12,990 nucleotides of DNA, taken from positions 1 through 12,990 of the forward strand of contig DAOWGI010000014.1 in assembly GCA_030637655.1 (NCBI GenBank), given 5' to 3'. This document shows positions 1-12,990 of the stretch, piece after piece. The notes beneath the pieces were generated by a model, which saw only the letters and a program-made list of their open reading frames with translations, did no database searches and had not been told where the DNA came from. Position numbers and translations under genes: made by a program. The stretch comes from a candidate division FCPU426 bacterium. Lineage in GTDB: Bacteria > Oederibacteriota > JAAXVQ01 > JAUVAV01. Position 1 is the first letter of the stretch. Each line of letters begins with the position of its first letter.

Positions 1-930
1 CATTATAGCCATAGTCAGGAAACCGTGGTTCCGGACGGCACCCTGGTAACTGTGAGTTCTTCGCTGGGGACTATTATAACCACTGACGCGAATACCATTA
101 TTCCGGGCGTACAAGTTCCTACTTCCGGGGGTGTGGTTGAGTTTGTGGTCCAAAGCATCAACCGGGAAATCGGAAAGACAACCCTTCAAGCGCTAACTGC
201 TTCCGGTTTCGCGGATAGCGGGGAGGTCACAGACTATTTGGAAATGGTCTTGGCTGACATGACCAACGGCACGATTTTGGTGAATCCGGCCATGGAAAAT
301 ACCACAGCGGAATATACAATTAGCGCCCGGAGTAACACAATTATTGATTTGCAAAGCGGAGTTGACATCATTACCCTGGGATTTCCCGAACAAATAATGC
401 TGCCTTCTTCCATACCTGCTTATTCAATTACTATCAACAATACCCCGGTAACCAACGCAGCCATAACCGATCAAAGCATATCCTTGCTAATGCCGCTGCT
501 TATCAATACGGCTGCTGATTTCACGATCTTTATTCCGGCTACTGTTAATATTATTAATCCTCCGGCCGGGCACTACGATTTAAGTATCCAAAGCACACAG
601 AATAGATCGCCGATCATCATTCCCTATGATATTCTTATTCATATCACGGATGAGGAGGTTGTGCCGGCTCCTAATCCCAGCAGTATTGGCCGGGTCCGGT
701 TCTTTTTTAACCTGGATGGTCCGGCCCAAGTGGAATTGGCGCTGCTTAATCTTAAGGGAGAAAAGGTCTCCCAGGTGACTGAAAATTACGCGGCCGCCAA
801 AAAAGGCGCAGTAATGGATTGGAATACGGAGCGGGTGGGGCCGGGTATGTATTGGGCGCTTATTAAAATTAAGTATGACGATGGCCGGGTAGTGAAAATG
901 AAAAAGAAGAAAGTGATTATTATTAAATAG
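1..930 (+). CDS. 5'-truncated secreted/surface protein: Ig-like beta-sandwich domains plus C-terminal T9SS type A-like sorting domain
   Basis: Frame 1 is open from base 1 (HYSHSQETV...), so the start lies upstream of the window. The N-terminal part is beta-rich (VPDGTLVTVSSSLGTI..., ...IINPPAGHYDLSIQST). The last ~90 aa (~658-927) read VVPAPNP...VELALLNLKGEKV...WNTERVGPGMYWALIKI...KKKVIIIK-stop, the PNP...G.Y...K.hhh pattern of T9SS-like CTDs. Confidence 0.8.
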   Translation, partial: HYSHSQETVVPDGTLVTVSSSLGTIITTDANTIIPGVQVPTSGGVVEFVVQSINREIGKTTLQALTASGFADSGEVTDYLEMVLADMTNGTILVNPAMENTTAEYTISARSNTIIDLQSGVDIITLGFPEQIMLPSSIPAYSITINNTPVTNAAITDQSISLLMPLLINTAADFTIFIPATVNIINPPAGHYDLSIQSTQNRSPIIIPYDILIHITDEEVVPAPNPSSIGRVRFFFNLDGPAQVELALLNLKGEKVSQVTENYAAAKKGAVMDWNTERVGPGMYWALIKIKYDDGRVVKMKKKKVIIIK

Positions 931-1095: not shown

Positions 1096-1611
1096 ATGAA
1101 GCGCTTCCCAAAGAACAAACGCCGCCGGATCGTGGTTGATCCTCAGTTTCAGATGCGGATGGTTTTTGTAATGAGCGCCATAGCTGCGATAGAAGTTGTA
1201 ATTGGCACCATACTGGTAATGTCGATCGCCATGACGAGTATCTGGATTCCGGCCGGTGATCATGCGGCGCTCTTCTATAAATTTGTGCTGACAATTCTTG
1301 GTATCGTGGTGGCGGTGACCATCTTTAATGTTATTATTGCCATTTTATTGTCTCACCGGATTGCCGGCCCGGCTTATCGATTAAAGCAAAGCATGCGGCA
1401 ATTTGGCGCCGGAGATTTATCTGTTCTGATCAATCTCCGCGAACATGATGAATTGCAGGAATTAAAAGATGAATTCAATGAGATGGCCAGTAGTATCCGC
1501 GATAAGGTCCGTATATATCTGGCTGAAGATAAAAAAGCAGGCAAAACCAAGGCAACAGCTAAAACACGGGGTCAAAAAGAAAAAGCCGGGTTTCCTTTTA
1601 AGCTGGATTAA
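1096..1611 (+). CDS. Small inner-membrane protein with two TM helices and a HAMP domain, no output domain
   Basis: Basic N-terminus RRRIVVDPQFQ, then two hydrophobic segments and a HAMP-like SHRIAGPAYRL...GDLSVLINLREHDELQELKDEFNEM. A short Lys-rich tail follows. AAGGA lies upstream of the ATG. Confidence 0.85.
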   Translation: MKRFPKNKRRRIVVDPQFQMRMVFVMSAIAAIEVVIGTILVMSIAMTSIWIPAGDHAALFYKFVLTILGIVVAVTIFNVIIAILLSHRIAGPAYRLKQSMRQFGAGDLSVLINLREHDELQELKDEFNEMASSIRDKVRIYLAEDKKAGKTKATAKTRGQKEKAGFPFKLD

Positions 1612-1963: not shown

Positions 1964-3205
1964 ATGATTAAATTTTCTGCTGTAAGCAACCACTTTAGGT
2001 TCCTGGTGGGATTGGGCATGATTTTGCTGTGCGTATCTAAAGGACTGGCGTATGATGAATATTGTGATCTGCGTTTTGATCCGCGGATATCAGCTCGTTA
2101 TTTAGGTATGGGCGCGCAATCAGGGTGGCAAACCGGAGCTGAGGCGGTTTTTGGAAATCCGGCGAATCTTGCCGTTCTCAGGAATATGGAATTAAGCTCC
2201 GGGGTTGGGATGTTTGCGGACAACAGTTTGATTGGAACTTTTGCTTACGGCCAGCCAATACCTGAGATTGGTAAGTTCGGGCTGGGGTTTTCAATGCTCT
2301 ACCCTAATAGCGAAGAAGTTTTGGCTGATGACAGCCTGGATAAGCTCAATACCCGCGAACAGATATTTTCACTGGGATATGGCAGAATGATTGCGCCCTC
2401 CTGGTTGCAGGCTGGTATCCGTTTCCGCGCTTTGCATGTCAATAATAAATCCGGCAATGAAGCGGGCGAGAGTATTGATCTTGGCCTGCGGTTTCAATTT
2501 AATAATTTTTTTGCCGGGATCACTGGAATTAATTTGTTGCAACCGCAGATTAACCTCAAGGGCGCAGGGATTGCGTATCCCCGGCGGGCCCAACTCAATC
2601 TCGGTATGGCCTTTAAAAATATCATGCAAGTGGGGGTTGAATACACGCAAGCGCTGGAAGGCGACCTGCCTTTTCGGGCAGCCCTGGGTTGGGAGAGCGC
2701 CTTTTCTGCGAAGTGGTTTATTCGTAATGGAGTAGATACCAGGTCAGTCTATCTGGGTTTTGGTTATTTTGACCGGAGTTGGGGAATTGATTATGCCGGC
2801 CGGGCTGATTTTGATTTGGAGGATATTTATCATTGTTTGGGAGTGCGCTTTAAATGGGGGACCCATCGCGTCGGACTGGAGAGTTCCTCAAAGTATTTAA
2901 CCAAAGGCGGGATCACGCCGCGGGTAACGATTAAAATTAATTACCAGCGGAAGGTATTGTTTAAAAGGTGGGCGCTTCTGATCCTGAATTCTAAGGGGAG
3001 GATGGTAAAATGTTTTGTCGGGAAAAATAAATTTCCCGGTTCAGTTACCTGGGAAGGAAGAAACAACAAGGGACGGATGGTTCCGGATGACGCGTATACC
3101 TGCTTTTTAGAAGGAGTGGATTATGAGGGTAATTTATTGAAATCCAATTTTATTTATATTACGGTTATGAGCCGGAAAGAGCCGGAATTTCACCAGGTGA
3201 AATAG
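1964..3205 (+). CDS. PorV/FadL-like (UPF0164-like) outer-membrane beta-barrel fused to a C-terminal FlgD-type Ig domain
   Basis: AAGGAG at 1949-1954 favours ATG 1964. The signal peptide ends ...SKGLA. The motif ISARYLGMG...AEAVFGNPANLA resembles the PorV/FadL plug motif GARxxGMG...NPAGL. Alternating amphipathic beta-strands follow (SIDLGLRFQF, VYLGFGY, WGIDYA, HCLGVRFKW). The C-terminal WALLILNSKGRMVK...VTWEGRNNKGRMVPDDAY...VDYEGN is FlgD-Ig-like. Confidence 0.75.
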   Translation: MIKFSAVSNHFRFLVGLGMILLCVSKGLAYDEYCDLRFDPRISARYLGMGAQSGWQTGAEAVFGNPANLAVLRNMELSSGVGMFADNSLIGTFAYGQPIPEIGKFGLGFSMLYPNSEEVLADDSLDKLNTREQIFSLGYGRMIAPSWLQAGIRFRALHVNNKSGNEAGESIDLGLRFQFNNFFAGITGINLLQPQINLKGAGIAYPRRAQLNLGMAFKNIMQVGVEYTQALEGDLPFRAALGWESAFSAKWFIRNGVDTRSVYLGFGYFDRSWGIDYAGRADFDLEDIYHCLGVRFKWGTHRVGLESSSKYLTKGGITPRVTIKINYQRKVLFKRWALLILNSKGRMVKCFVGKNKFPGSVTWEGRNNKGRMVPDDAYTCFLEGVDYEGNLLKSNFIYITVMSRKEPEFHQVK

Positions 3206-3238
3206 TATTGCGCCGTAATTAAAAAGATAAGCAATTTT

Positions 3239-3403
3239 GTAACATGTCAGTCATGCGGTTTTTTTGTTTGTCATCCCCGAAGGCTTTAATCGGGGATCTT
3301 GTAGGGGCGCACTGAGTGCGCCCGTAGCCGGTCGTCCCTACCTCTGGATTCCCGCTAAATACCTGCGGGAATGACAATTTTTGTTTAACCGCAGTTTACT
3401 GAC
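3239..3403. mobile_element. Probable second, more decayed member of the same MITE-end family
   Basis: The left end GTAACATGTCAGTCATG matches the 1680 TIR at 16/17 positions. GTCAGTCATGCGGTT pairs imperfectly with AACCGCAGTTTACTGAC (3387-3403). The outer right end and a TSD are not recognisable. Confidence 0.55.
3270..3375. repeat. Composite palindromic intergenic repeat, copy 2
   Basis: GTCATCCCCGAAGGCTTTAATCGGGGATC...GGATTCCCGCTAAATACCTGCGGGAATGAC shell. It contains GTAGGGGCGCACTGAGTGCGCCC (3301-3323, identical to 990-1012) and a truncated inverted REP ending in CCCTAC (3341). Confidence 0.85.
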
Positions 3404-3439
3404 TTGAATGAGGAGATTAAATTGACCGGGAGTTATATG

Positions 3440-6400
3440 ATGCAGCAACAATGCAAGGTGTGGGTTTTAATGGGTGGGATTCTAATTGGGATTATGGGCG
3501 TTATGTCGGCTCAAACAGCCCTTGCCAAAAGCCCAGAAACACAAGCCTGGATTATGCTGGTAAAAGCGATGGAGGCAAATCCCGGCGCTCATAAGACTCT
3601 GAACCAAGCCATAACCTTTATTAATCATTACCCCCGCAGTCAATTTAAATCAGCCGCTGAATACATGGTGGGCGAAAATTATTTTATCAACCGCAAATAT
3701 AAATTAGCCCTGGCTTATTACCAGCAGTTGCTGCGAAAAATCGATACCCTTTCCTATGGCGACAGCGTTATGTTTCGCTTAGGCGAATGTCATTTTAATC
3801 TGGGCAAAATAAAGCAGGCGGAAAACACCTGGAACGCGATGCAAAGCCGGTTTCCTAAAACGTATCTGCGGTCCGAAGTCGAGGTGAATCGCTGCCAGAT
3901 TTTATTAAAACAAGAAAAATATCATGCTGCCATGCGGCGTTATCGTGCTTTGCTTTCGCGCTATCCATATCTTAGGGATCGTAAAAATATTTTAGTAGGG
4001 CTGGCCCGGATTGATTATGCTCAGCAAAAATATGTCGAAGTCTTAAAGAGGCTGGCCCGGATTAAAACCCCAGCCGCTCTGTACTTTAAAGGACGCAGTC
4101 TCTTCGCTTTGAAGCGGTATCAAGAAGCGGCAAATTATTTTGATAAAATCGAAAAACGCCATCCGAAGCATATTTATGTGAAAAACTCCATATATTTGAA
4201 AGCTGAATCGTTTTTTCGTGCCAATAATTTCTCAGCCGCGACTCGGGCCTATAAAAAATTTCTGCAGCGCTACCCTCAAGGCACGCTGGCTTATTTCGCC
4301 CGTTATAAATTAACCGCAGTGCTGCTTTCCCGGAAAAAATATAATGAGGCGCTGGCTAATATTAATCGGGGTATGGCCATGCCACAGCAGCATTTGTCGG
4401 CTTTTTTTATGAAATATTTAAGGGCGGAAATCTATGTGGGATTGAGGCGTTATTCCCAGGCCGCCGAACTTTTTAGGGAGATAGTGGGGAGCAATCCACC
4501 GGAACAAATTTTAGAAACCTGCCTGGTCAAGTATGCCTGGGTGCTGTACAAAAGCAAGAAATATGCTTTGGCCATTAAAATCGCCAAACGCCATCTGGAA
4601 ACTTTCGGCGGCAATGAGCGGGCGGTTTCTGCGCACTGTATTATTGCCAACAGTAATTATTTTATGCGCAATTACCGGCAAGCATTACGTACTTATCGCG
4701 ATATTCTTATGCAACACCCGTACTCTGAACTTATCGAGATTGCTTTAGTGCAAATGCAGATAACCTATTTAAAGACCAAGCAGATCGGTCAAATTATTTC
4801 TCAGACTTCCGACTTTGTAAAAAAGATGGAGGAACATTTCAAACCCATAAGCCGGAAATACCGGAGCATGGCTCTCTATTTTCTGGGAGAGGCGTATTAT
4901 CAGAAAAAACGCCCCCTGGAAGCTATCGCGCTTAACGAGAAAATCATCACCAAATATTGGGACACCAAAGCCTATGCCTATGCCAAAGAAGCTTTAGTTT
5001 GGGCGTATTTTGAACAGGATCAATTCTCACTGGCATTAAAAGAAGCTGAAAAAGTTATTAAAGACCGGCGGATCAGCAAAACCATCCGTGCTGATATCGC
5101 CTTGGTCAAAGGGCACTGTTTATTTAATTTAAAAAGATACAAACCGGCTTTGGAAAATTACAGTGGCTGGTTGAAAAAAAATCCCAGAAGTCCGGAGCGG
5201 GTAAATATTCAATATCTGATGGGTTTGGCCTACTATAGGCTTAAATATTATAAGAGCGCGATGAAGATTTGGGAAAAAGTCATTGCCCACCCCGCGCGTA
5301 ATGAATTTAACCGGACCGCGCTTTTGAAGGTGGCGGATACTCTTTTTAGAGGGAGGGATAATCCGCGCGCGCGCGCGCGTTACCAGTTGTATATCCAGCG
5401 CTATCCCAAAGGTTCGGAAGTTCCTCTGGCTTATCTTCGAATCGCGCAGACCTATTACAACCAGGGGTTTGATGAAAAAGCCATCAATGCCTACCGGGTG
5501 TTTATTCGTCGTTTTCCCAATCACGCCAGTTGTGAAACTGCCCAGGATGGGGTTGAGACCACCGCGTTTCGACGGGTCAAAAAAAACCCAGTGATGAAAA
5601 ATCTCAGAAATTATTTGGCGCATTATCCCAAGAGCAAGTTTGCCAATCAAATACAGTATCAGATCGCGGATAAATATTATAAAAGCAAAAATTATCCGAT
5701 TGCCATCCGGGAGCTTAATCGGTTGATCTTAAACTACCCGGGCAGCGAGGCGATTCCCAACAGCATGTTTTATCTGGGAGACAGTTTCGATCAACTGAAA
5801 AAATATGCAGATGCCATCTCAGCCTATTCGTTATTTATCGAGACCTATCCCAAACATGATTTGATGCCGGAGGTGCTGACCCGGCTGGGCGCTGATTTTT
5901 ACCTGCTGGGAAATTTTGCCGATGCCATCGTTAAATACCGCAGGATTTTGGATAAGTTTCCGGTTAAACCCTATTTGGAAGATGCGCTCTACAACATTGC
6001 GGTGTGTTATGGAAAGATGGGAAGACACAACGAAGCCCTGGCTATGTACATGGATTTTGTGGCGCGGTATCCTAAAAGCCCGCGGGCAGTGGAAGCCGGA
6101 ATTCAGATTGGCATTTACTATCAGGATCAGCAACTTTGGGATTTGGCTATTTCGACCTTTAAAAAAGCATTGTTGGTTAATTCCAGGCACAAAAAAGAGA
6201 TTTACTTTCGCCTCGGCGATAGTTATGAAAACAATAATAAGATTGGCAGGGCGATGCAAAGTTACCAAAAGATAATTCCGATGTCGCCCAAGAGCAATAT
6301 TTATCGGATTACGGGTATTTCACAACTGGCGGCCTATTATGAGCGAAAGCAGCAATGGAGCCTGGCGCTTAAAATGTACCGCGACATTTCCAAAAATGCC

Positions 6401-6460
6401 GCCAATCCGAAATGGCGCTCGGAGGCGGCTAAACGGGTTAAATTGCTCAGTCAACCGTGA
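3440..6460 (+). CDS. Large exported tetratricopeptide-repeat protein (BamD/CpoB-type TPR repeats), ~1006 aa
   Basis: GGGAG at 3428-3432 precedes ATG 3437/3440. Sec signal peptide ends ...AQTALA|KS. Many TPR units with A.y.lGe.yf...y..A...y..l...YP.S signatures (NHYPRS, RFPKT, RYPQG, RYPKGS, RFPNH, HYPKS, NYPGS, TYPKH, RYPKS). Confidence 0.9.
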   Translation: MQQQCKVWVLMGGILIGIMGVMSAQTALAKSPETQAWIMLVKAMEANPGAHKTLNQAITFINHYPRSQFKSAAEYMVGENYFINRKYKLALAYYQQLLRKIDTLSYGDSVMFRLGECHFNLGKIKQAENTWNAMQSRFPKTYLRSEVEVNRCQILLKQEKYHAAMRRYRALLSRYPYLRDRKNILVGLARIDYAQQKYVEVLKRLARIKTPAALYFKGRSLFALKRYQEAANYFDKIEKRHPKHIYVKNSIYLKAESFFRANNFSAATRAYKKFLQRYPQGTLAYFARYKLTAVLLSRKKYNEALANINRGMAMPQQHLSAFFMKYLRAEIYVGLRRYSQAAELFREIVGSNPPEQILETCLVKYAWVLYKSKKYALAIKIAKRHLETFGGNERAVSAHCIIANSNYFMRNYRQALRTYRDILMQHPYSELIEIALVQMQITYLKTKQIGQIISQTSDFVKKMEEHFKPISRKYRSMALYFLGEAYYQKKRPLEAIALNEKIITKYWDTKAYAYAKEALVWAYFEQDQFSLALKEAEKVIKDRRISKTIRADIALVKGHCLFNLKRYKPALENYSGWLKKNPRSPERVNIQYLMGLAYYRLKYYKSAMKIWEKVIAHPARNEFNRTALLKVADTLFRGRDNPRARARYQLYIQRYPKGSEVPLAYLRIAQTYYNQGFDEKAINAYRVFIRRFPNHASCETAQDGVETTAFRRVKKNPVMKNLRNYLAHYPKSKFANQIQYQIADKYYKSKNYPIAIRELNRLILNYPGSEAIPNSMFYLGDSFDQLKKYADAISAYSLFIETYPKHDLMPEVLTRLGADFYLLGNFADAIVKYRRILDKFPVKPYLEDALYNIAVCYGKMGRHNEALAMYMDFVARYPKSPRAVEAGIQIGIYYQDQQLWDLAISTFKKALLVNSRHKKEIYFRLGDSYENNNKIGRAMQSYQKIIPMSPKSNIYRITGISQLAAYYERKQQWSLALKMYRDISKNAANPKWRSEAAKRVKLLSQP

Positions 6461-6582
6461 TGCCGGTTGGTTGAGATGAAAGCTGGGAAGGAATGGATGA
6501 ACAAACAGAAAGATTAATTGTTGTGCCGGTTCATTTTTTTTAAAAATATTATGCTACCAAGAATTTGGTTAAGGAGGCTCAA

Positions 6583-7227
6583 ATGGGCATTGAAATTGAT
6601 GTCATGCAGGTTTTTCGCAGCAGTGTTACCCTGGTTGTATTGTTAATATGTTCAATTGTTGTTTTGACTGTTACCCTGGAACGTTGGTGGGTAACCCGGC
6701 GGAACAATGTTGACATGAACTGGATGTTAGTCCGAGTTCGCCGCTATATTCTGGAAAACCGGTTTTCAGAAGCAATTACCTTTCTCTCGAAACATAAAAG
6801 TTCCATTGCCGCTGTTTTTCGCGAGGGAATACAGAAAAGGACATTGATACGTTCGGATATGGAAGAATTCCTTATCAATGTTATTAGCGGCCAAAATCTG
6901 ATTCTGGAAAAACGTCTGGGCATTTTAGGCACCCTGGGTAGTATGTCGCCGTTTATCGGCCTTTTGGGAACGGTCCTGGGTATTGTCCGGGCGTTCCATG
7001 ATTTAGCTGCCGCCTCAGGCGGTGGACCGAGCGTAGTGGCCAACGGCATCGCGGAAGCGCTGGTGGCAACTGCCGCCGGTTTGGTGGTTGCCATTCCGGC
7101 GTTGATGTTTTTTAATTATTTTTCCAATAAAGTCAGGGTCATTAATGCCAATATGGAAATGGCCGCCCGCAGTCTGATTTTATTAATCTATGCCAAGGAG
7201 CAATCACGCGATGGGGCTAAGTACTAA
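6583..7227 (+). CDS. exbB: MotA/TolQ/ExbB proton channel family protein
   Basis: AAGGAGG at 6571-6577 precedes ATG 6583. TM1 is followed by LERW. The signature LGTLGSMSPFIGLLGTVLGIVRAF...GIAEALVATAAGLVVAIPA..FNYF retains the conserved Thr/Glu/Thr. Confidence 0.95.
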   Translation: MGIEIDVMQVFRSSVTLVVLLICSIVVLTVTLERWWVTRRNNVDMNWMLVRVRRYILENRFSEAITFLSKHKSSIAAVFREGIQKRTLIRSDMEEFLINVISGQNLILEKRLGILGTLGSMSPFIGLLGTVLGIVRAFHDLAAASGGGPSVVANGIAEALVATAAGLVVAIPALMFFNYFSNKVRVINANMEMAARSLILLIYAKEQSRDGAKY

Positions 7228-7672
7228 GCGGGAATCCAAGCCAATTGCGGAGATTAATATGACGCCGTTGGTGGACGTGAGCCTGGTGTTGGTGATCATC
7301 TTTATGGTTTCGGCTCCTATGATTGCCCAGCAGGGTATTCTGGTAAATTCTCAAAAAAAAGAGGTGGGCGACAAGCCGGAGCAAACACGGGAAGCTGTGG
7401 TGGAAACTATTTATATAAAAATCGCAGCAGATTACATCGAACTTAACGGCAAAAAAACCGGTATCAAGGTGTTGCCATTTAAACTTAAGCATATTTTGAT
7501 TAGCAATCCGGACGAGATGGTTTATATAAATTCCGAGGGACAGGTTCAATACGGCCGGGTGGTGAGTGTTCTCGATATTGCCCGGCAAAGTGGCGCGAGA
7601 AAGTTGGCGCTTTTAAATGACAAAGAGGGGCTTTTGGAAAGAACTTTAATTTTTAATAAGAAAAGAAGGTAG
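7211..7672 (+). CDS. exbD: ExbD/TolR family protein 1
   Basis: AAGGAG at 7195-7200 precedes ATG 7211, which overlaps the exbB end. Signature EINMTPLVDVSLVLVIIFMVSAP with the essential Asp; C-terminal VQYGRVVSVLDIARQSGARKLAL. Confidence 0.93.
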   Translation: MGLSTKRESKPIAEINMTPLVDVSLVLVIIFMVSAPMIAQQGILVNSQKKEVGDKPEQTREAVVETIYIKIAADYIELNGKKTGIKVLPFKLKHILISNPDEMVYINSEGQVQYGRVVSVLDIARQSGARKLALLNDKEGLLERTLIFNKKRR

Positions 7673-7678
7673 ATTAAG

Positions 7679-8089
7679 ATGATACCGGCAGCCAAGAAAC
7701 CAGATGCAACAATCAATTCGATCAATGTTACGCCGTTGGTTGACGTCTGTTTGGTGTTGGTGATTATCTTTATGGTTACCGTGCCCATGCTGTTTAAGCC
7801 ATTACGGGAAATCATTATGCCCAAAGCGTATACAGCGCAGTCGCAAAATAAGCAAATTATTTATGTTACCTGCACCAGAGACAAACTTATGTTTTTGGAT
7901 GAAGAGGAGGTAAATGTTCAGGCGCTTTTGGAAAGATTGGGAGCCAAATTGATAACCAGCGAGTATAAAGTAGTGATTATTCGCGCGGACGAGAAGTTGC
8001 CCTACGATCATATTACCCAGGTGATGGCGATCGTTAAAAAAGCCGGTGCCAGAAAAATATATTTCGCAACTGAAGTCAAAAAGAATTGA
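7679..8089 (+). CDS. exbD: ExbD/TolR family protein 2
   Basis: Signature INVTPLVDVCLVLVIIFMVTVP; C-terminal VIIRADEKLPYDHITQVMAIVKKAGARKIYFAT. Confidence 0.95.
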   Translation: MIPAAKKPDATINSINVTPLVDVCLVLVIIFMVTVPMLFKPLREIIMPKAYTAQSQNKQIIYVTCTRDKLMFLDEEEVNVQALLERLGAKLITSEYKVVIIRADEKLPYDHITQVMAIVKKAGARKIYFATEVKKN

Positions 8090-8144
8090 TTCGGCCGGCG
8101 CCGAACAGCTAAAAAGTGCAACCGGCAAAAGGAATGAGTGGTAA

Positions 8145-9158
8145 ATGTTTAAAAAAAGTTTCAAGGAAAAGAAATTGCTGGGTTTGGCATTTTCAGTATC
8201 AATGGCGGTTCATATTACGCTGTTTTTAACTACCGTCTTGATGGGTCAAACTATTATGCGTAAACCCATGTTGCAATTAACCGAGATTGATATTATCGAG
8301 CCGCTGGAGGTTCCGGAAGTGCAGGAGATTATCGCCCTGCCGCCGCCAAAAAAAAGCGTATTTAACATGATTAAAAAAGTTGTGCCCGTGAAAAAGCGAA
8401 AACCGCGGATTAGACGTCCACAGCCGGGCGGCGCAGCAAAAAAAACAACAGCAAAAAAAGCAACAACAAAAAAACGGGTTTACACAGGAGCGCCATTGAT
8501 TTCGAAAAAATCCATAGGCGGCAGCGGCCAGGCCGGCCGGCAACCCATGATTTCCAGAAAAGCAGCAGGACAACGTACCGGCACCGGCGCCCCAAAGTGG
8601 GACAGCGGTCCAGGTAACCGGGTGAGCAGCGGGCGCAAATTGAATCTTTCTAAGTCGCTTTCTTTGCCGGAAGGATACCATCAGGGTGTGGTGGATGCGA
8701 ATATAGCCGCCGCCTTAAAAGGCAAGCGGGGTGAATTAAGCCTGCATAAAAATAGTAATATCAATGCCATTGTAGGCAATGTTACCCAGCGAAAAAGAAT
8801 GGGGCTGGCAGCCGGGCGGGGTAGCGGCTCCGGGGCTAATTTAAAAGGTTTTCGCGATGCTTTCGCGGTTTTTGGGCAGATTAAAAACCGTAAAATCATA
8901 CATATGAAAATGCCTCGTTACCCGGCTTGGGCCGAAGAGCAAGGCATAGAGGCGTCGGTCAAGATTCATGTAGGGGTGCTGGCCGGCGGGGCCGTGGATG
9001 AAAGCAGTATTTACGTGGAATCCACCAGCGGCTATCCGCAATTGGATAAGCTGGCGTTACAAGCCATAAGTTATTTTTATTTCGCGCCTTTGCCGAAAAA
9101 AAAGCCTCAGGTTATGCAATCTGGAAGCGTTCGTTTTGTTTTCCGGTTGAAGCGATAA
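8145..9158 (+). CDS. tonB: TonB-family energy transducer with a Lys/Arg/Gly-rich linker
   Basis: N-terminal TM anchor with the S-x3-H motif (SMAVH), then a low-complexity linker. TonB_C domain PRYPAWAEEQGIEASVKIHVGV...VESTSGYPQLDKLALQAI..FYFAP...VRFVFRL. Lies directly downstream of exbB-exbD-exbD. Confidence 0.88.
   Translation: MFKKSFKEKKLLGLAFSVSMAVHITLFLTTVLMGQTIMRKPMLQLTEIDIIEPLEVPEVQEIIALPPPKKSVFNMIKKVVPVKKRKPRIRRPQPGGAAKKTTAKKATTKKRVYTGAPLISKKSIGGSGQAGRQPMISRKAAGQRTGTGAPKWDSGPGNRVSSGRKLNLSKSLSLPEGYHQGVVDANIAAALKGKRGELSLHKNSNINAIVGNVTQRKRMGLAAGRGSGSGANLKGFRDAFAVFGQIKNRKIIHMKMPRYPAWAEEQGIEASVKIHVGVLAGGAVDESSIYVESTSGYPQLDKLALQAISYFYFAPLPKKKPQVMQSGSVRFVFRLKR
8436..8474 (+). repeat. Imperfect 15-bp in-frame tandem repeat encoding AKKTT-AKKAT-TKK
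   Basis: GCAAAAAAAACAACA / GCAAAAAAAGCAACA / ACAAAAAAA, containing A8, A7 and A7 runs. Confidence 0.75.
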
Positions 9159-9226
9159 TTTTGTAATAAGTTGGTTAATTTTTGTTGCGGGAATGACATA
9201 ATTGTCTAAATAAGGGAGGGAGAAGA

Positions 9227-10177
9227 TTGAAAACCCTGGCAGCCATAAATTTGAACTTTGCGCGGGTAGTGCTGAGTCTTGGCGTACTGGTGATTGTGAT
9301 ACCGGCTCAGGTAATCGGAGCCGCGACCACATCCGGGCCGCAAGGAAAGGATAAGTCAGCCCGTGTAAAGGCGGGCAAGGATTTTGTGGTATCCGGCGAG
9401 GATAAGCTGAAGGTTCGCTCGGATAAACTGATGCGTTCCCTGTTTATTGATGTTGACAAGCCTGTCCAGGAGGCTATGCAAGAATCTTCTAAATTATCCC
9501 GCGCGATCCTTCCGGAAAAAGAACTTAGCAGATATGAAAAAGCCGGTATGCTAAGCAAGAGCCGCATGACGTTTTCGCCCTGGCTGACACTGATTACCAA
9601 GCAACCGATTTTAGTCATTAGAACACAAAAAACGAATATGGCTATAAAAAGTTGGAAATTCACCATTTCCGATGAAACCGGCAGAGTGTTGTACTTAAAA
9701 ACCGGTGGCGGGAAGCTGCCGCCACAATACATTTGGGATGGCCGCTGCCGGGACGGGCGTCTGCTGGATGTAGGAGAGAGTTATTTTTATTCAATTACCC
9801 TGGTTGATAAAGCCGGCAACCCATTGCTTACCAGTTCTAAAATAAGAAGACTTAACAGCCTCGCATATTATGAAGAGAACAATTTAAACATCAAATTACT
9901 TTCCTCGGTTTTGTTTAAAAAAAAGATAAAATCTGAAATTTCCTCAATAGGTATTTCTTTAATGAACGAAAGCTGCGACTATATCATTAAAGATATCGGT
10001 CGCGAGACCCGGATTAATATTAACTGCGCTAATCCAAAGCTGGGCCAGGCTCAGGGACGAGCAGTGAAAGAATATATTGTTGAAAAAATGGCGCTGCCGA
10101 AAAATGATTTAAAAGTAAAAGTTCTGCCTTCCCATGATCGCTTAACCGATGGGGTACATATTATTTGCGTAAGATAA
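9227..10177 (+). CDS. Exported protein with an FlgD-type Ig domain and a degenerate OmpA/MotB-C-like C-terminal domain
   Basis: TTG start behind GGGAGGGAG; hydrophobic signal-like N-terminus. IKSWKFTISDETGRVL...LPPQYIWDGRCRDGRLL..GESYFYSITLVDKAGN is FlgD-Ig-like. LNIKLLSSVLF...SEIS..G..LM...AVKEYIVEKMALPKNDLKV resembles the OmpA-like fold pattern. Confidence 0.7.
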   Translation: MKTLAAINLNFARVVLSLGVLVIVIPAQVIGAATTSGPQGKDKSARVKAGKDFVVSGEDKLKVRSDKLMRSLFIDVDKPVQEAMQESSKLSRAILPEKELSRYEKAGMLSKSRMTFSPWLTLITKQPILVIRTQKTNMAIKSWKFTISDETGRVLYLKTGGGKLPPQYIWDGRCRDGRLLDVGESYFYSITLVDKAGNPLLTSSKIRRLNSLAYYEENNLNIKLLSSVLFKKKIKSEISSIGISLMNESCDYIIKDIGRETRININCANPKLGQAQGRAVKEYIVEKMALPKNDLKVKVLPSHDRLTDGVHIICVR

Positions 10178-10250
10178 AGCAGGGAGCGGTTGTTTATTAT
10201 AAGATGAATATAAGATAATTTTTCAGCACCTGAAAGGCGGTGAAGACATC

Positions 10251-11264
10251 GTGATGAAAAAGATATTGCGGTTTGCCATGTTGGCTATTGCATTGCTGGT
10301 TATGAGCCGATTAAGCTATGCCCAAGAAGAACAGATTACAGACAAAGACATTTTAAATCTTGATGAGCAAACCCTGAATTCTATTCTGGACGAATTAATA
10401 GGGCAGCTTGATGGTGATACTAACCTGGAAGTACCTTCGCCGCCACTTGAGCCTGAACCTCAGGTTGAACAGGCGGAAGAGCCTATGCCGCAGGTGGAGG
10501 CGCCGGTGGAGGATACAACTGCTTTCATGGTTGAGCCGGTTGAAGCAGAGCCGGAAGTAAGTGAAGAGCCTTGGTTTGGATCTGATTATGCGGCAGAGGA
10601 AGCTGTGGCGGAAGAACCGGTTCCTGTAGTAGAAGACCAGGTCGAGCCGCCAATGGAAGAGCCAAGTCCGGAGTTTGCAGCATCGGATGATTATATGCCT
10701 GAACCTGATGTGGTAGAACCAGTGCAAGAGCCGGCTCCTGAGCTGATGATGATTGCCGAGGAACCTACGCTTGAACCCGAATTTGAACCCGAATTTGAAC
10801 CCGAATTTGAACCCGAATTTGAACCCGAAATGATACCTGATCCGCAAATTACTGCGCCTCCTGTGGAACCCGCTGAAGCATTTATGGCAACAGCTGAATC
10901 CTCGCCGGGACCAGAGGCGCGATCTAAAAAAAGCAAGATTATAAAGACCGAGGAACAGCTAAATACCCGGTATGTAAAAATATCCCGTCAACTCAGGGAT
11001 AATGAATTAATCACAGTGGGTGATGTGGTAATGTTACCGACTCCTGATTTCAAGATCATTCGTCTTAATGAACGGTATACAATTTATACACGTATGCGCA
11101 GGAATCTGCCGAATGTGAAATCCGGAATTTTCACTTGGTATGAAAAGGTCGGTGAATTGAATATATTGGAAATCAATGGGCGAGTCAGTTTGGCGCGTGT
11201 GGTTGCAGCCTGCAACATTATCAAAAAAGGTGATGTGGTTCATTTAACAGTTATGGGTGATTGA
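10251..11264 (+). CDS. Exported protein with a long acidic Glu/Pro-rich linker and an FlgT_C/TsaP-like C-terminal domain
   Basis: Start is GTG 10251 or ATG 10254; signal peptide MKKILRFAMLAIALLVMSRLSYA|QE. About 190 aa of E/P-rich disordered sequence follow. The C-terminal GDVVML...RYTIY...KVGELNILEINGRVSLARVVAACNIIKKGDVV resembles the FlgT_C/TsaP pattern. The CDS itself is solid; the domain call is tentative. Confidence 0.7.
   Translation: MMKKILRFAMLAIALLVMSRLSYAQEEQITDKDILNLDEQTLNSILDELIGQLDGDTNLEVPSPPLEPEPQVEQAEEPMPQVEAPVEDTTAFMVEPVEAEPEVSEEPWFGSDYAAEEAVAEEPVPVVEDQVEPPMEEPSPEFAASDDYMPEPDVVEPVQEPAPELMMIAEEPTLEPEFEPEFEPEFEPEFEPEMIPDPQITAPPVEPAEAFMATAESSPGPEARSKKSKIIKTEEQLNTRYVKISRQLRDNELITVGDVVMLPTPDFKIIRLNERYTIYTRMRRNLPNVKSGIFTWYEKVGELNILEINGRVSLARVVAACNIIKKGDVVHLTVMGD
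10771..10829 (+). repeat. Perfect 12-bp tandem repeat (TTGAACCCGAAT) x4.9 encoding (EPEF)n
   Basis: Read directly; no synonymous differences between units. Confidence 0.95.
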
Positions 11265-11287
11265 TCCGACTTCACAGATTAGTTTGC

Positions 11288-11560
11288 TAACCCAGACAAG
11301 CTGGAACCAAATCCAGCCGCTGATACACGCCGAGTGAAATTTTTTGTATCCATAACCCGGACAAGCCGGAACTGAAAATCTTTGACAGGATTATCAGGAT
11401 ATACGGGATTTTAAATAAATTCTATCAATCCTGTTATCCTGTCAAAAGAAATTTTTTACGCTTTTTACGGCGAATAATTTTCTTGCCAAAAAAGCAAGAA
11501 TTTAAGACGTAAGTTAATAAAGCTATAAATATCTGCGTTCATCCGCGTTCATCGGCGGTT
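11288..11560. repeat. Nested inverted/direct repeat cluster between convergent genes
   Basis: Direct repeat TAACCCRGACAAGCYGGAAC at 11288-11307 and 11353-11372. Inverted pair TTTGACAGGATTATCAGGAT (11381-11400) / ATCCTGTTATCCTGTCAAA (11428-11446). Hairpin TTCTTGC-N7-GCAAGAA (11480-11500). Three tandem 10-mers ATCTGCGTTC ATCCGCGTTC ATCGGCGGTT (11531-11560), partly inverted with AGCCGCTGATACACGCCGA (11315-11333). Confidence 0.8.
11476..11503. terminator. Possible weak bidirectional terminator hairpin
   Basis: 7-bp stem TTCTTGC/GCAAGAA in an A/T-rich context between convergent stop codons. The U-tracts are short, and the larger 11381-11446 hairpin (followed by T-rich sequence) could serve the same role. 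Confidence 0.3.
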
Positions 11561-11570
11561 AATTTTCTTT

Positions 11571-12990
11571 TCATTTCCGCCTGATTATGCCGATTTTTCT
11601 GGTCTGTTTAACCGGCCGGCTGTTGTCCTGGGGCTTCACGATTATGCGGCAGATATAGCCACCACTGCCTAATATTACGCCTCTGCCGCTTCTGCCATCC
11701 CAGGAAATGGTATTCCGCTGCCCAATCGGAGTTCCCCGTCCGCCTTCTTCCCCGGCCTTGAACCTGAACCTTTTCACACAATCCCCTAAATAGGTATAAA
11801 TACCTATCTCCACATCCGCATCCTTGGTTAATACATAGGTTATGCTGGTTTTTTCCCGGGGTGCTGCAAAAGGATTAGGATAATTACTAAATTGAGTTAT
11901 TACTTTAGCAACAACGGATATGGTCGTAGTAGTGGTTGGAGTATTTGAAAAAATGGGCAATGGCGAGAGCGTAGGGGATGGAGTGAATGTCGCCGCTGGG
12001 GTAGGCGATATGGTAGCGGTTAGAGTATGTGAGGGCGTAATAGTATTGGTTGGGGTGTGAGTTGGCGTGCTAATAGTTGTTTCCGTGAATGTAGGGGTAT
12101 ACGTGGCCGTGCAGGTTGGCGTATCAGTTGGCGAAGCCGCGCCAGTGGGAGTAAAGGTTGGAGTACTAGTGTGTGTTTGTGTTCCAGTCAGCGTGGCAGT
12201 ATAAGTTGGAGTGTTGGTTGATGTGGATGTGCATGTCGGCGTATCGTTCGGTGTGGCCGTGTTCGTTGGCGTGATTGTATGAGTTGGCGTATTACTCGCT
12301 GTAACCGTTAAAGTTGGAGTGGCAGTGTTCGTTGGAGTATTGGTCGACGTTTCTGTCGGCGTAACTGTGCCCGTAGGAGTCACAGTACTCGTCGGCGTAT
12401 GGGTCGGTGTGTCTGTGGGTGTTGCCGTGCTGGTAGGAGTGTCTGTTGGCGTATCGTTTGGCGTGTCCGTGCTCGTTGGTGTAGTGGTCGATGTTAATGT
12501 ACTCGTCAGCGTTGCTGTCGGTGTGGTCGTTGGTGTATCTGTAGATGTAGCCGTACTAGTCGTTGTATTGGTAGGTGTCCCAGTTTGAGTGGCTGTATTA
12601 GTCGGTGTATTAGTCGGTGTATTAGTCGGTGTTACTGTCCGCGTTGCGGTACTGGTCGGAGTGTCTGTTGGCGTATCGTTTGGCGTGTCCGTGCTCGTTG
12701 GTGTATTGGTCGATGTTGATGTACTCGTCAGCGTTGCTGTCGGTGTGGTCGTTGGTGTATCTGTAGATGTAGCCGTACTAGTCGTTGTATTGGTAGGTGT
12801 CCCTGTAGGCGTGGCTGTACTTGTTGGCGTATTAGTCGGTGTTGTTGTCCGCGTTGCCGTACTGGTAGGAGTATCTGTTGGCGTATCGTTTGGCGTGTCC
12901 GTGCTCGTTGGTGTAGTGGTCGATGTTAATGTACTCGTCAGCGTTGCTGTCGGTGTGGTCGTTGGTGTATCTGTAGATGTAGCCGTACTA
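11571..12990 (-). CDS. 5'-truncated surface protein: Thr/Pro (T-X)n stalk plus C-terminal T9SS-like/FlgD-Ig sorting domain
   Basis: I read the frame from 12383 to the window edge and found no stop; nearly every second codon is Thr. The C-terminus is FSNYPNPF...[28 protein letters not shown]...[22 protein letters not shown]...[10 protein letters not shown]-stop. Confidence 0.9.
12421..12990 (-). repeat. Long in-frame tandem repeats (units of 222 and 210 bp, third copy cut by the window edge) with an internal 12-bp VNTR
   Basis: Near-identical blocks start at 12421, 12643 and 12853. TGTATTAGTCGG x3 at 12594-12629 accounts for the 12-bp length difference between units. Confidence 0.92.

Follow-up and report, generated by a model that had tools for sequence, protein, structure and literature searches.

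A candidate Ton-type motor operon for a type 9 secretion carrier and its giant cargo in the Firestonebacteria

The stretch of DNA analysed here (the window) is a whole contig of 12,990 nucleotides, C29 of a 3.28-Mb genome assembly (GCA_030637655.1; G000 below) that is 91.55% complete and belongs to the phylum Firestonebacteria. It holds an operon that encodes an outer-membrane barrel resembling PorV, a carrier in the T9SS (type 9 secretion system), together with a large tetratricopeptide repeat (TPR) scaffold, one ExbB, two ExbD proteins, a TonB-type transducer and an adaptor predicted to be periplasmic (Table 1). We propose, with a probability of about one half, that this operon is a private proton-driven pulling device: a Ton-type motor serving one T9SS carrier and its giant cargo.

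The operon and its conservation in the phylum

All genes from the barrel to the gene for an acidic protein point the same way, with gaps of -17 to 234 bp. A first-pass annotation made from the sequence alone had reported this order, and open reading frames (ORFs) and family scans bear it out: the TPR protein has the length given for it, and ExbB, both ExbD proteins and the TonB_C domain each score above the Pfam cut-off. The LGT and EALVAT motifs of ExbB are intact. AAGGAG occurs at 1949, 6571 and 7195, 6-10 nt 5' of the ATGs at 1964, 6583 and 7211; a fourth copy, at 3111, is intragenic. These sites had been offered as a sign of a lineage outside the Bacteroidota, a placement that is correct and stands more firmly on the close relationship to Candidatus Firestonebacteria. 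A promoter and terminator scan of the window stayed at chance level. As had also been noted, the window contains no gene for a TonB-dependent receptor (TBDR), TolB, Pal or GldK/L/M/N; five TBDR matches lie elsewhere in the genome.

Table 1. Features of the window
Feature	Coordinates	Strand	Evidence and remarks
Last 309 aa of a large, secreted protein of Ig repeats with T9SS-type C-terminal domain (CTD)	1..930	+	cut by contig start; TIGR04183 E 0.0019, residues 224-299, below cut-off
Small inner-membrane protein, HAMP domain, no output domain	1096..1611	+	PF00672 E 6.7e-9
FadL/PorV-fold outer-membrane barrel with C-terminal FlgD/CTD-fold Ig domain	1964..3205	+	NF033709 E 1.2e-8; model
TPR scaffold, ~1006 aa, predicted periplasmic, signal peptide without lipobox	3440..6460	+	lipobox judged by eye and regular expression
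ExbB/TolQ-family motor subunit	6583..7227	+	PF01618 E 1.7e-32
ExbD/TolR subunit 1, membrane aspartate present (PLVD)	7211..7672	+	PF02472 E 9.2e-21
ExbD/TolR subunit 2, membrane aspartate present (PLVD)	7679..8089	+	PF02472 E 9.8e-27
TonB-type transducer: helix at the N-terminus (S19/H23 conserved), then linker and TonB_C	8145..9158	+	PF03544 E 8e-11; alignment
Adaptor, 316 aa, predicted periplasmic: signal peptide, then a TonB-box-like motif (residue 52), FlgD-Ig and OmpA-like domains	9227..10177	+	model, fold search, motif tests
Secreted protein: acidic Pro-rich linker and conserved ~100-aa C-terminal beta domain	10254..11264	+	alignment; composition
Thr/Pro-repeat protein with terminal CTD, convergent	11571..12990	-	absent downstream in L066-L069

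Conservation was read in 40 loci of the phylum, picked by their best adaptor matches and hence selected for the adaptor gene (C-numbers below are contigs of the source genome, L-numbers loci from other genomes of the phylum). The order barrel-TPR-ExbB-ExbD-ExbD-TonB-adaptor is contiguous in 30 of them, three having the barrel cut by a contig end and one having frameshifts; four more are cut earlier by contig ends and six are rearranged or variant. The linkage of the barrel and TPR genes to exbBD-tonB that had been predicted is thus conserved in 30 of 40 adaptor-bearing loci. These synteny counts are confined to the phylum; a scan of named genomes with one TPR protein gave two loci. Where the gene 5' of the barrel is visible it encodes a CTD protein, mostly of more than 1500 aa, in 22 of 26 cases, a HAMP protein in three and a frameshift fragment in one. 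At the position orthologous to 1..930 stand Big-domain CTD proteins of 1342+ aa (L069) and 1538 aa (L158), and the CTD protein upstream in the window is the probable cognate cargo of the barrel. The gene cluster is real and conserved.

Secretion parts, carrier and adaptor

The source genome is rich in PorV-type carriers and CTD cargoes. Its PorV-family matches number 46, of which 32 exceed the cut-off, and profiles built locally count 47 barrels and 70 proteins ending in a CTD. A co-oriented CTD gene lies 5' of 29 of 46 barrels, against 29 of 2485 other genes, which argues that cargoes have their own carriers. The periplasmic tails of the 47 barrels consist of Ig plus OmpA domains (12 are such barrel-Ig-OmpA fusions), are long and TPR- or binding-protein-like as judged by eye, or are lacking, and most of the barrels are paired with a CTD cargo gene. 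The genome also holds many giant ORFs of 2000 to 12,000+ aa (on C73, C20, C8, C115, C10, C56 and other contigs); a large set of them have a similar, export-like N-terminal segment and C-termini of small residues such as AA.

The search for SprA that the first-pass annotation had suggested found this translocon throughout the phylum. Starting from weak SprA_N matches we traced homologues of 1750-2200 aa ending in Phe in relatives; TIGR04189 matches 16 of 16 of them (the first at 235 bits, cut-off 200), a profile of the phylum's SprA matches Flavobacterium johnsoniae SprA in the PDB at E 1e-48, and at E<=1e-30 it detects SprA in 94 of 99 genomes, in two as C-terminal fragments. The phylum's SprA carries N-terminal FN3 repeats in the alignment and at L118:5414-11761, and an FN3-rich CTD protein is often encoded 3' of it. 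In the source assembly neither TIGR04189 nor PF14349 identifies a SprA, and the relatives' profile gave an FN3 protein alone. None of 11 genes that neighbour sprA in close relatives, including CoaD-like and comF-like genes, was found there either, and because these neighbours are missing too an assembly gap is the best reading. The idea that the lineage lacks SprA was rejected on the same grounds, given its occurrence in the relatives.

By comparison, the Gld motor was not detected: GldM had no match in 61 genomes, and GldL, GldN and GldK had none above cut-off in 99, no control genome carrying these genes. The absence had been anticipated and should be read as non-detection, since family models can miss distant members, as the SprA case illustrates; a positive control sought in plasmid records with SprA gave FN3 matches alone. 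Peptidase_C25, the family of the PorU sortase, had no match in the source genome, and no control matched either. The TPR protein of the window reaches 94.5 bits with the SprE/PorW model (cut-off 250), and a lipobox-like string occurs in 4 of 51 long TPR relatives. Identity with SprE/PorW was rejected on the score and on the missing lipobox.

The first-pass annotation had described the barrel as PorV-like with a FlgD-Ig domain and had named FadL as the family that it might join instead. The match to PorV_fam falls short of the cut-off (34.9 bits against 90) and is accompanied by a weak FlgD_ig match. With a profile of the barrel family the top PDB match is PorV (6h3i_F, E 2.8e-5), and no FadL chain appears at E<=1; the FadL/Toluene_X model PF03349 gives E 0.087 and 11.7 bits, below its cut-off of 29.7, and the barrel scores better as PorV than as PorP. 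In a structure model (pLDDT 76), a 14-strand barrel with an N-terminal hatch takes up residues ~32-299 and the Ig domain occupies residues ~300-403. Sequence profiles thus favour PorV, whereas the fold does not separate it from FadL (Z 29.4 to PorV, 30.2 to FadL), a 14-strand barrel with an N-terminal hatch being common to FadL, PorV and BAM-associated barrels. The Ig domain, which would lie in the periplasm, resembles the C-terminal domains of PorU (Z 11.9) and PorZ. Judged by profiles and gene context rather than by fold, the barrel is probably a divergent PorV-family carrier. Barrels of the widespread core paralogue of the module (see below) close with a conserved acidic peptide that follows the Ig domain and might bind the TPR protein; in the window paralogue this peptide is altered.

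The phylum possesses a second, related unit, here called the sister unit, composed of a TPR protein, a 520-630-aa barrel, ExbB, one ExbD and TonB; this make-up is seen in 17 of 20 loci read (L138-L157). The sister-barrel profile finds its family in 92 of 99 genomes at E<=1e-30. The barrel resembles those of TBDRs, and none of four members scanned has a Pfam plug domain. In the source genome the unit lies at C1:4368-11009; its neighbour in family f9 is rpsA, and the f3 family has a PorV gene directly 5' of the unit's TPR gene (L150-L152). When homologues were sought with the sister-barrel profile, 11 proteins came back, with no informative names. As leads, the commonest Atlas taxa are Fibrobacterota and Spirochaetota for the sister barrel, and Elusimicrobiota and WOR-3 for adaptor look-alikes.

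The sister barrel bears on the nature of the adaptor. All 16 sister barrels examined carry an N-terminal (L/I/V)P-[DEA]-xxx-G motif, which we take to be TonB-box-like. Scored with a matrix derived from these barrels alone, 38 of 41 adaptors exceed the 95th percentile set by 696 control proteins, the top-scoring site in the adaptors being their own N-terminal motif; a reverse profile test was also made. In the source genome each of the four TPR-linked motors has a partner gene with the motif (a weak one on C7), three of these being in the training set, and it was seen neither in 16 SprA proteins nor in carriers. These comparisons show that the adaptor has, in common with the TBDR-like sister barrel, a putative N-terminal TonB box.

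The adaptor has no Pfam or NCBIfam match; its structure model and a fold search do reveal the FlgD-Ig and OmpA-like folds that had been predicted. The NRRV motif of OmpA domains is present in 12 of 12 barrel-Ig-OmpA fused anchors of the source genome as against 3 of 41 adaptors, and the G[HY][TS]D motif in 6 of 12 as against none of 41. By these motif counts, the adaptors' OmpA-like domain has lost the predicted peptidoglycan-binding motifs that the fused anchors keep. A PorE-type wall anchor had been considered for the adaptor and was rejected for this reason, although the fold is present. Barrel and adaptor together look like a wall-anchored carrier that has been split, its anchor disabled and a TonB handle added. 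A complex prediction for TonB_C (232-337) and the adaptor (33-316) scored 0.00 with unfolded controls, giving no verdict, and is not used as evidence.

In a midpoint-rooted tree the window-, core- and C7-type ExbB proteins share a single clade (99/97), and those of the sister unit and of the C35 and C38 motors fall outside it. A TBDR adjoins the C38 motor, the C35 motor is of the same type, and both are separate loci. The window TonB also groups apart from TBDR-serving sets, as had been expected of it; the trees for TonB and for the barrel are quick ones in which many forks stay open. No TBDR is adjacent to the module in the loci read, and the motor may act on one in trans.

The source genome has three copies of this module type (C29, C107 and C7). 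The window holds a second, fast-evolving copy, a minor paralogue marked by an additional HAMP protein and by a protein with an acidic linker, and its type is complete in four other genomes (L066-L069). The widespread core paralogue sits among housekeeping genes, with neither HAMP nor chemotaxis neighbours. TPR paralogues occur on C107, C7 and C1, and on C8 the N-terminal part of the TPR protein is fused to the adaptor and has no motor, a natural fusion also found in L071. In both places (G000:C8:59372-74634 and L071) a CTD giant, a HAMP protein and the fusion, devoid of box motif and motor, are followed directly by a chemotaxis cluster. Encoded 5' of the C7 module (G000:C7:8257-15772) are gene pairs judged by eye to be pilin- or WxL-like, along with one short CTD protein and a barrel-OmpA fusion, and a 1247-aa protein with a barrel-type C-terminus is encoded near its motor (25604-29347).

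The HAMP-only protein between cargo and barrel, absent from the first-pass account, is conserved: it holds the same position in L067-L069 and also stands beside the fusion on C8, and it is specific to the window-type paralogue. Its family comprises window 1096-1611, G000:C74:8779-9354, C8:70755-71354 and C104:10029-10646, at least three of the four in CTD/PorV loci. The acidic protein (linker 30% D+E, 21% P) is encoded 3' of the adaptor in L066-L069 and 3' of the fusion in L071, and is an accessory gene of the same paralogue. The label FlgT_C/TsaP once given to it finds no confirmation: neither the whole protein nor its last 110 aa has a Pfam match, and no PDB sequence matches. The cluster had further been seen as bracketed by two CTD proteins. 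Both window flanks do have CTD-like ends, matching TIGR04183 and NF033707 C-termini below cut-off, but the downstream gene is missing in all four closest relatives, and this minus-strand gene probably lies outside the unit. Its CTD is near-identical (94 of 109 aa) to one at a contig end (G000:C1:38037-38366); the long Thr/Pro repeats of this pair of contig-end proteins probably break the assembly.

Possible work of the motor

One could envision the following sequence of events. The giant CTD protein would be exported through SprA and caught by the adjacently encoded PorV-type barrel, a pairing for which there is genomic support. Other carriers, many of which end in Ig plus an intact OmpA domain, could be fixed to the wall, whereas the window carrier stops after a bare Ig domain, and the adaptor, as its partner, brings the Ig and an OmpA-like domain without wall-binding motifs, and with the TonB-box-like motif instead. 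ExbB-ExbD-ExbD would drive TonB, whose TonB_C domain would grip this motif, and the TPR scaffold would hold the adaptor to the carrier's periplasmic Ig tail. The pull might extract the loaded carrier from SprA, or might move, tension or release the displayed protein afterwards. All contacts between proteins in this chain are our inference. For F. johnsoniae, the step reported to need energy is the release of the carrier-substrate complex from SprA (PMC10994853), which makes such a release a plausible job for a TonB handle.

Several observations weigh against this proposal. The coupling of motor to carrier is drawn from gene order and motifs alone, and the name TonB box, given on homology to a family of TBDR-like barrels, denotes a putative binding site. 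The barrel scores below the PorV cut-off, ties with FadL in fold, and forms a long branch that the tree does not resolve together with the core-module barrels. SprA is absent from the source assembly, six of the 40 loci have a changed order or a barrel that is not adjacent, and 53 SprA-positive genomes do without the module. Most of the 47 carriers of the source genome have no adjacent motor, which makes it evident that cargo can be dealt with in the absence of such a device.

This distribution bears on the idea, put forward in the first-pass annotation, that the lineage powers its T9SS export with this module, whether as a general, an alternative or an ancestral energy source. In its favour, SprA, PorV-type carriers and, in one genome, at least 70 CTD proteins occur with no detectable GldKLMN, and here a motor is linked to a carrier. 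Yet the stand-alone adaptor (E<=1e-30) occurs in 43 of 99 genomes; the other 56, which include the single-contig G004 and all 31 genomes of family f9, have FlgD/OmpA domains of fused barrels alone or nothing, and 53 of the 56 possess SprA. Moreover, the module is not beside sprA in 20 sprA loci read, and SprA and the other carriers do not score for the motif. The patchy distribution largely refutes this explanation, which we regard as very unlikely, and the module looks like a derived paralogue of the near-universal sister unit, mainly on the strength of that contrast in distribution. The sister unit is itself the better candidate for a general energiser. It is tempting to speculate that the TPR-ExbB-ExbD-TonB family as a whole powers a T9SS that has SprA and no GldKLMN, with the sister unit as general energiser, derived copies having grafted the box onto a released wall-anchor domain to pull a dedicated carrier and its giant adhesin, and GldLM being a Bacteroidota-specific replacement in an older, Ton-powered T9SS. 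We hold this wider scenario as tentative, and rather doubtful.

Three other roles can be considered. In the one that we hold to be unlikely, the motor performs Tol-like envelope maintenance, acting on tethers between outer membrane and wall, with the cargo gene merely co-transcribed. The TolQ/TolR models do give ExbB and ExbD higher scores than the ExbB/ExbD models give them (every score below cut-off), the source genome has no Pal or TolB above cut-off where controls matched, and the near-universal sister unit adjoins rpsA in family f9; but the adaptor lacks wall-binding motifs, the cargo-barrel pair stays joined across many families, and one genome holds duplicates of the unit that differ in cargo. 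Rather improbable is a motor of the Agl-Glt type that propels a T9SS-displayed adhesin on its carrier, as GldLM propels SprB-SprF. One ExbB, two ExbD, a TonB-like and TPR proteins are the make-up of the Agl-Glt core (PMC3169522), a chemotaxis cluster follows the window-type module in L066-L068, and no flagellin above cut-off was found in the source genome. The same genome has PilT, however, leaving type IV pili as a system that the chemotaxis genes can serve; neither track genes nor genes for coupling to a cytoskeleton were seen, the core paralogue sits among housekeeping genes, and the Agl-Glt core is reported to be insufficient for gliding (PMC3169522). We find it improbable, finally, that the surface protein senses a ligand or a surface and the chain, tensioned by the motor, relays this inward through the HAMP and chemotaxis proteins, or that the chain opens the barrel hatch to a small molecule. 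A HAMP-only protein within the operon, the chemotaxis neighbourhood, a FadL-fold barrel with an N-terminal hatch and the TBDR-like barrel served by the sister unit would all suit such a role, but the HAMP and chemotaxis neighbours are confined to the minor paralogue and are lacking from the widespread core, and the unit contains no sigma, anti-sigma or kinase gene.

If the pulling device proposed here is correct, its interest lies in what it would add to the prevailing view, in which T9SS needs GldLM energy to pull carrier and cargo off SprA and is confined to the FCB group (Fibrobacteres-Chlorobi-Bacteroidetes). A phylum outside that group that has SprA and carriers and cargoes by the dozen, and in which no Gld motor is detectable, implies another energy source or an energy-free step. 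The operon offers a candidate chain, from TonB_C to the adaptor motif, to TPR and Ig, to the carrier. It suggests that a TonB box can move from a transporter-like barrel to a soluble adaptor, a use of Ton motors that would be new, and points to a possible undescribed way of pulling on surface-displayed proteins.

Relation to known systems

We found no description of the unit, or of a T9SS in the phylum, in a literature search that took in few subscription papers and no supplements; a term search of the main text of the Goldbacteria paper shows no T9SS discussion (PMC7031533). In Fibrobacter succinogenes, a cellulose-induced OmpA-TPR-TPR-ExbB-ExbD-ExbD-TonB cluster has been reported and read as an uptake system (PMC6851124). 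The envelope machine is real, conserved and apparently undescribed.

Like the Bacteroidota T9SS, the system described here has a SprA homologue, PorV-family barrels, CTD cargoes, a TPR protein and, close by, a proton motor of the 5:2 type. It differs in having no GldK/L/M/N above cut-off and, in the source genome, no C25 sortase (neither search had a positive control), in a TPR protein that is not SprE, in 47 carriers with periplasmic tails, and in the N-terminal FN3 repeats of SprA. T9SS is reported as restricted to the FCB group (PMC8754138); the host phylum lies outside it. Closer in design is the triad of type B CTD, PorP-SprF and PorE, in which the cargo gene is likewise linked to its own carrier and an OmpA-domain partner works on the periplasmic side (PMC9143113, PMC12618676). 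The carrier here is nearer to PorV, the OmpA-like domain has a TonB-box-like motif in place of wall motifs, and a Ton motor is part of the operon.

With the Ton system of TonB-dependent transporters the unit has in common ExbB, ExbD, TonB_C and a box-like motif, the last also present in a family of TBDR-like barrels; unlike in that system, the partner that bears the box is a soluble periplasmic Ig/OmpA-like protein, and the TBDR-serving motors form separate loci and a separate clade. The Agl-Glt machinery (AglRQS, GltG and the TPR proteins GltD/E/C; PMC3169522) also unites one ExbB-like, two ExbD-like, a TonB-like and TPR proteins in one cluster that has been duplicated for different jobs. Its likeness is one of composition: the partners here are a PorV-type barrel and a CTD cargo, and among NCBIfam Agl/Glt families the module proteins gave a generic TPR match to GltE alone (E 0.04). 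The unit fails to qualify as a member of the Bacteroidota T9SS energy chain, of Tol-Pal or of the PorE group. By analogy, it would work like a hybrid in which the triad of cargo, cognate carrier and PorE is joined to a motor of the Ton or Agl type.

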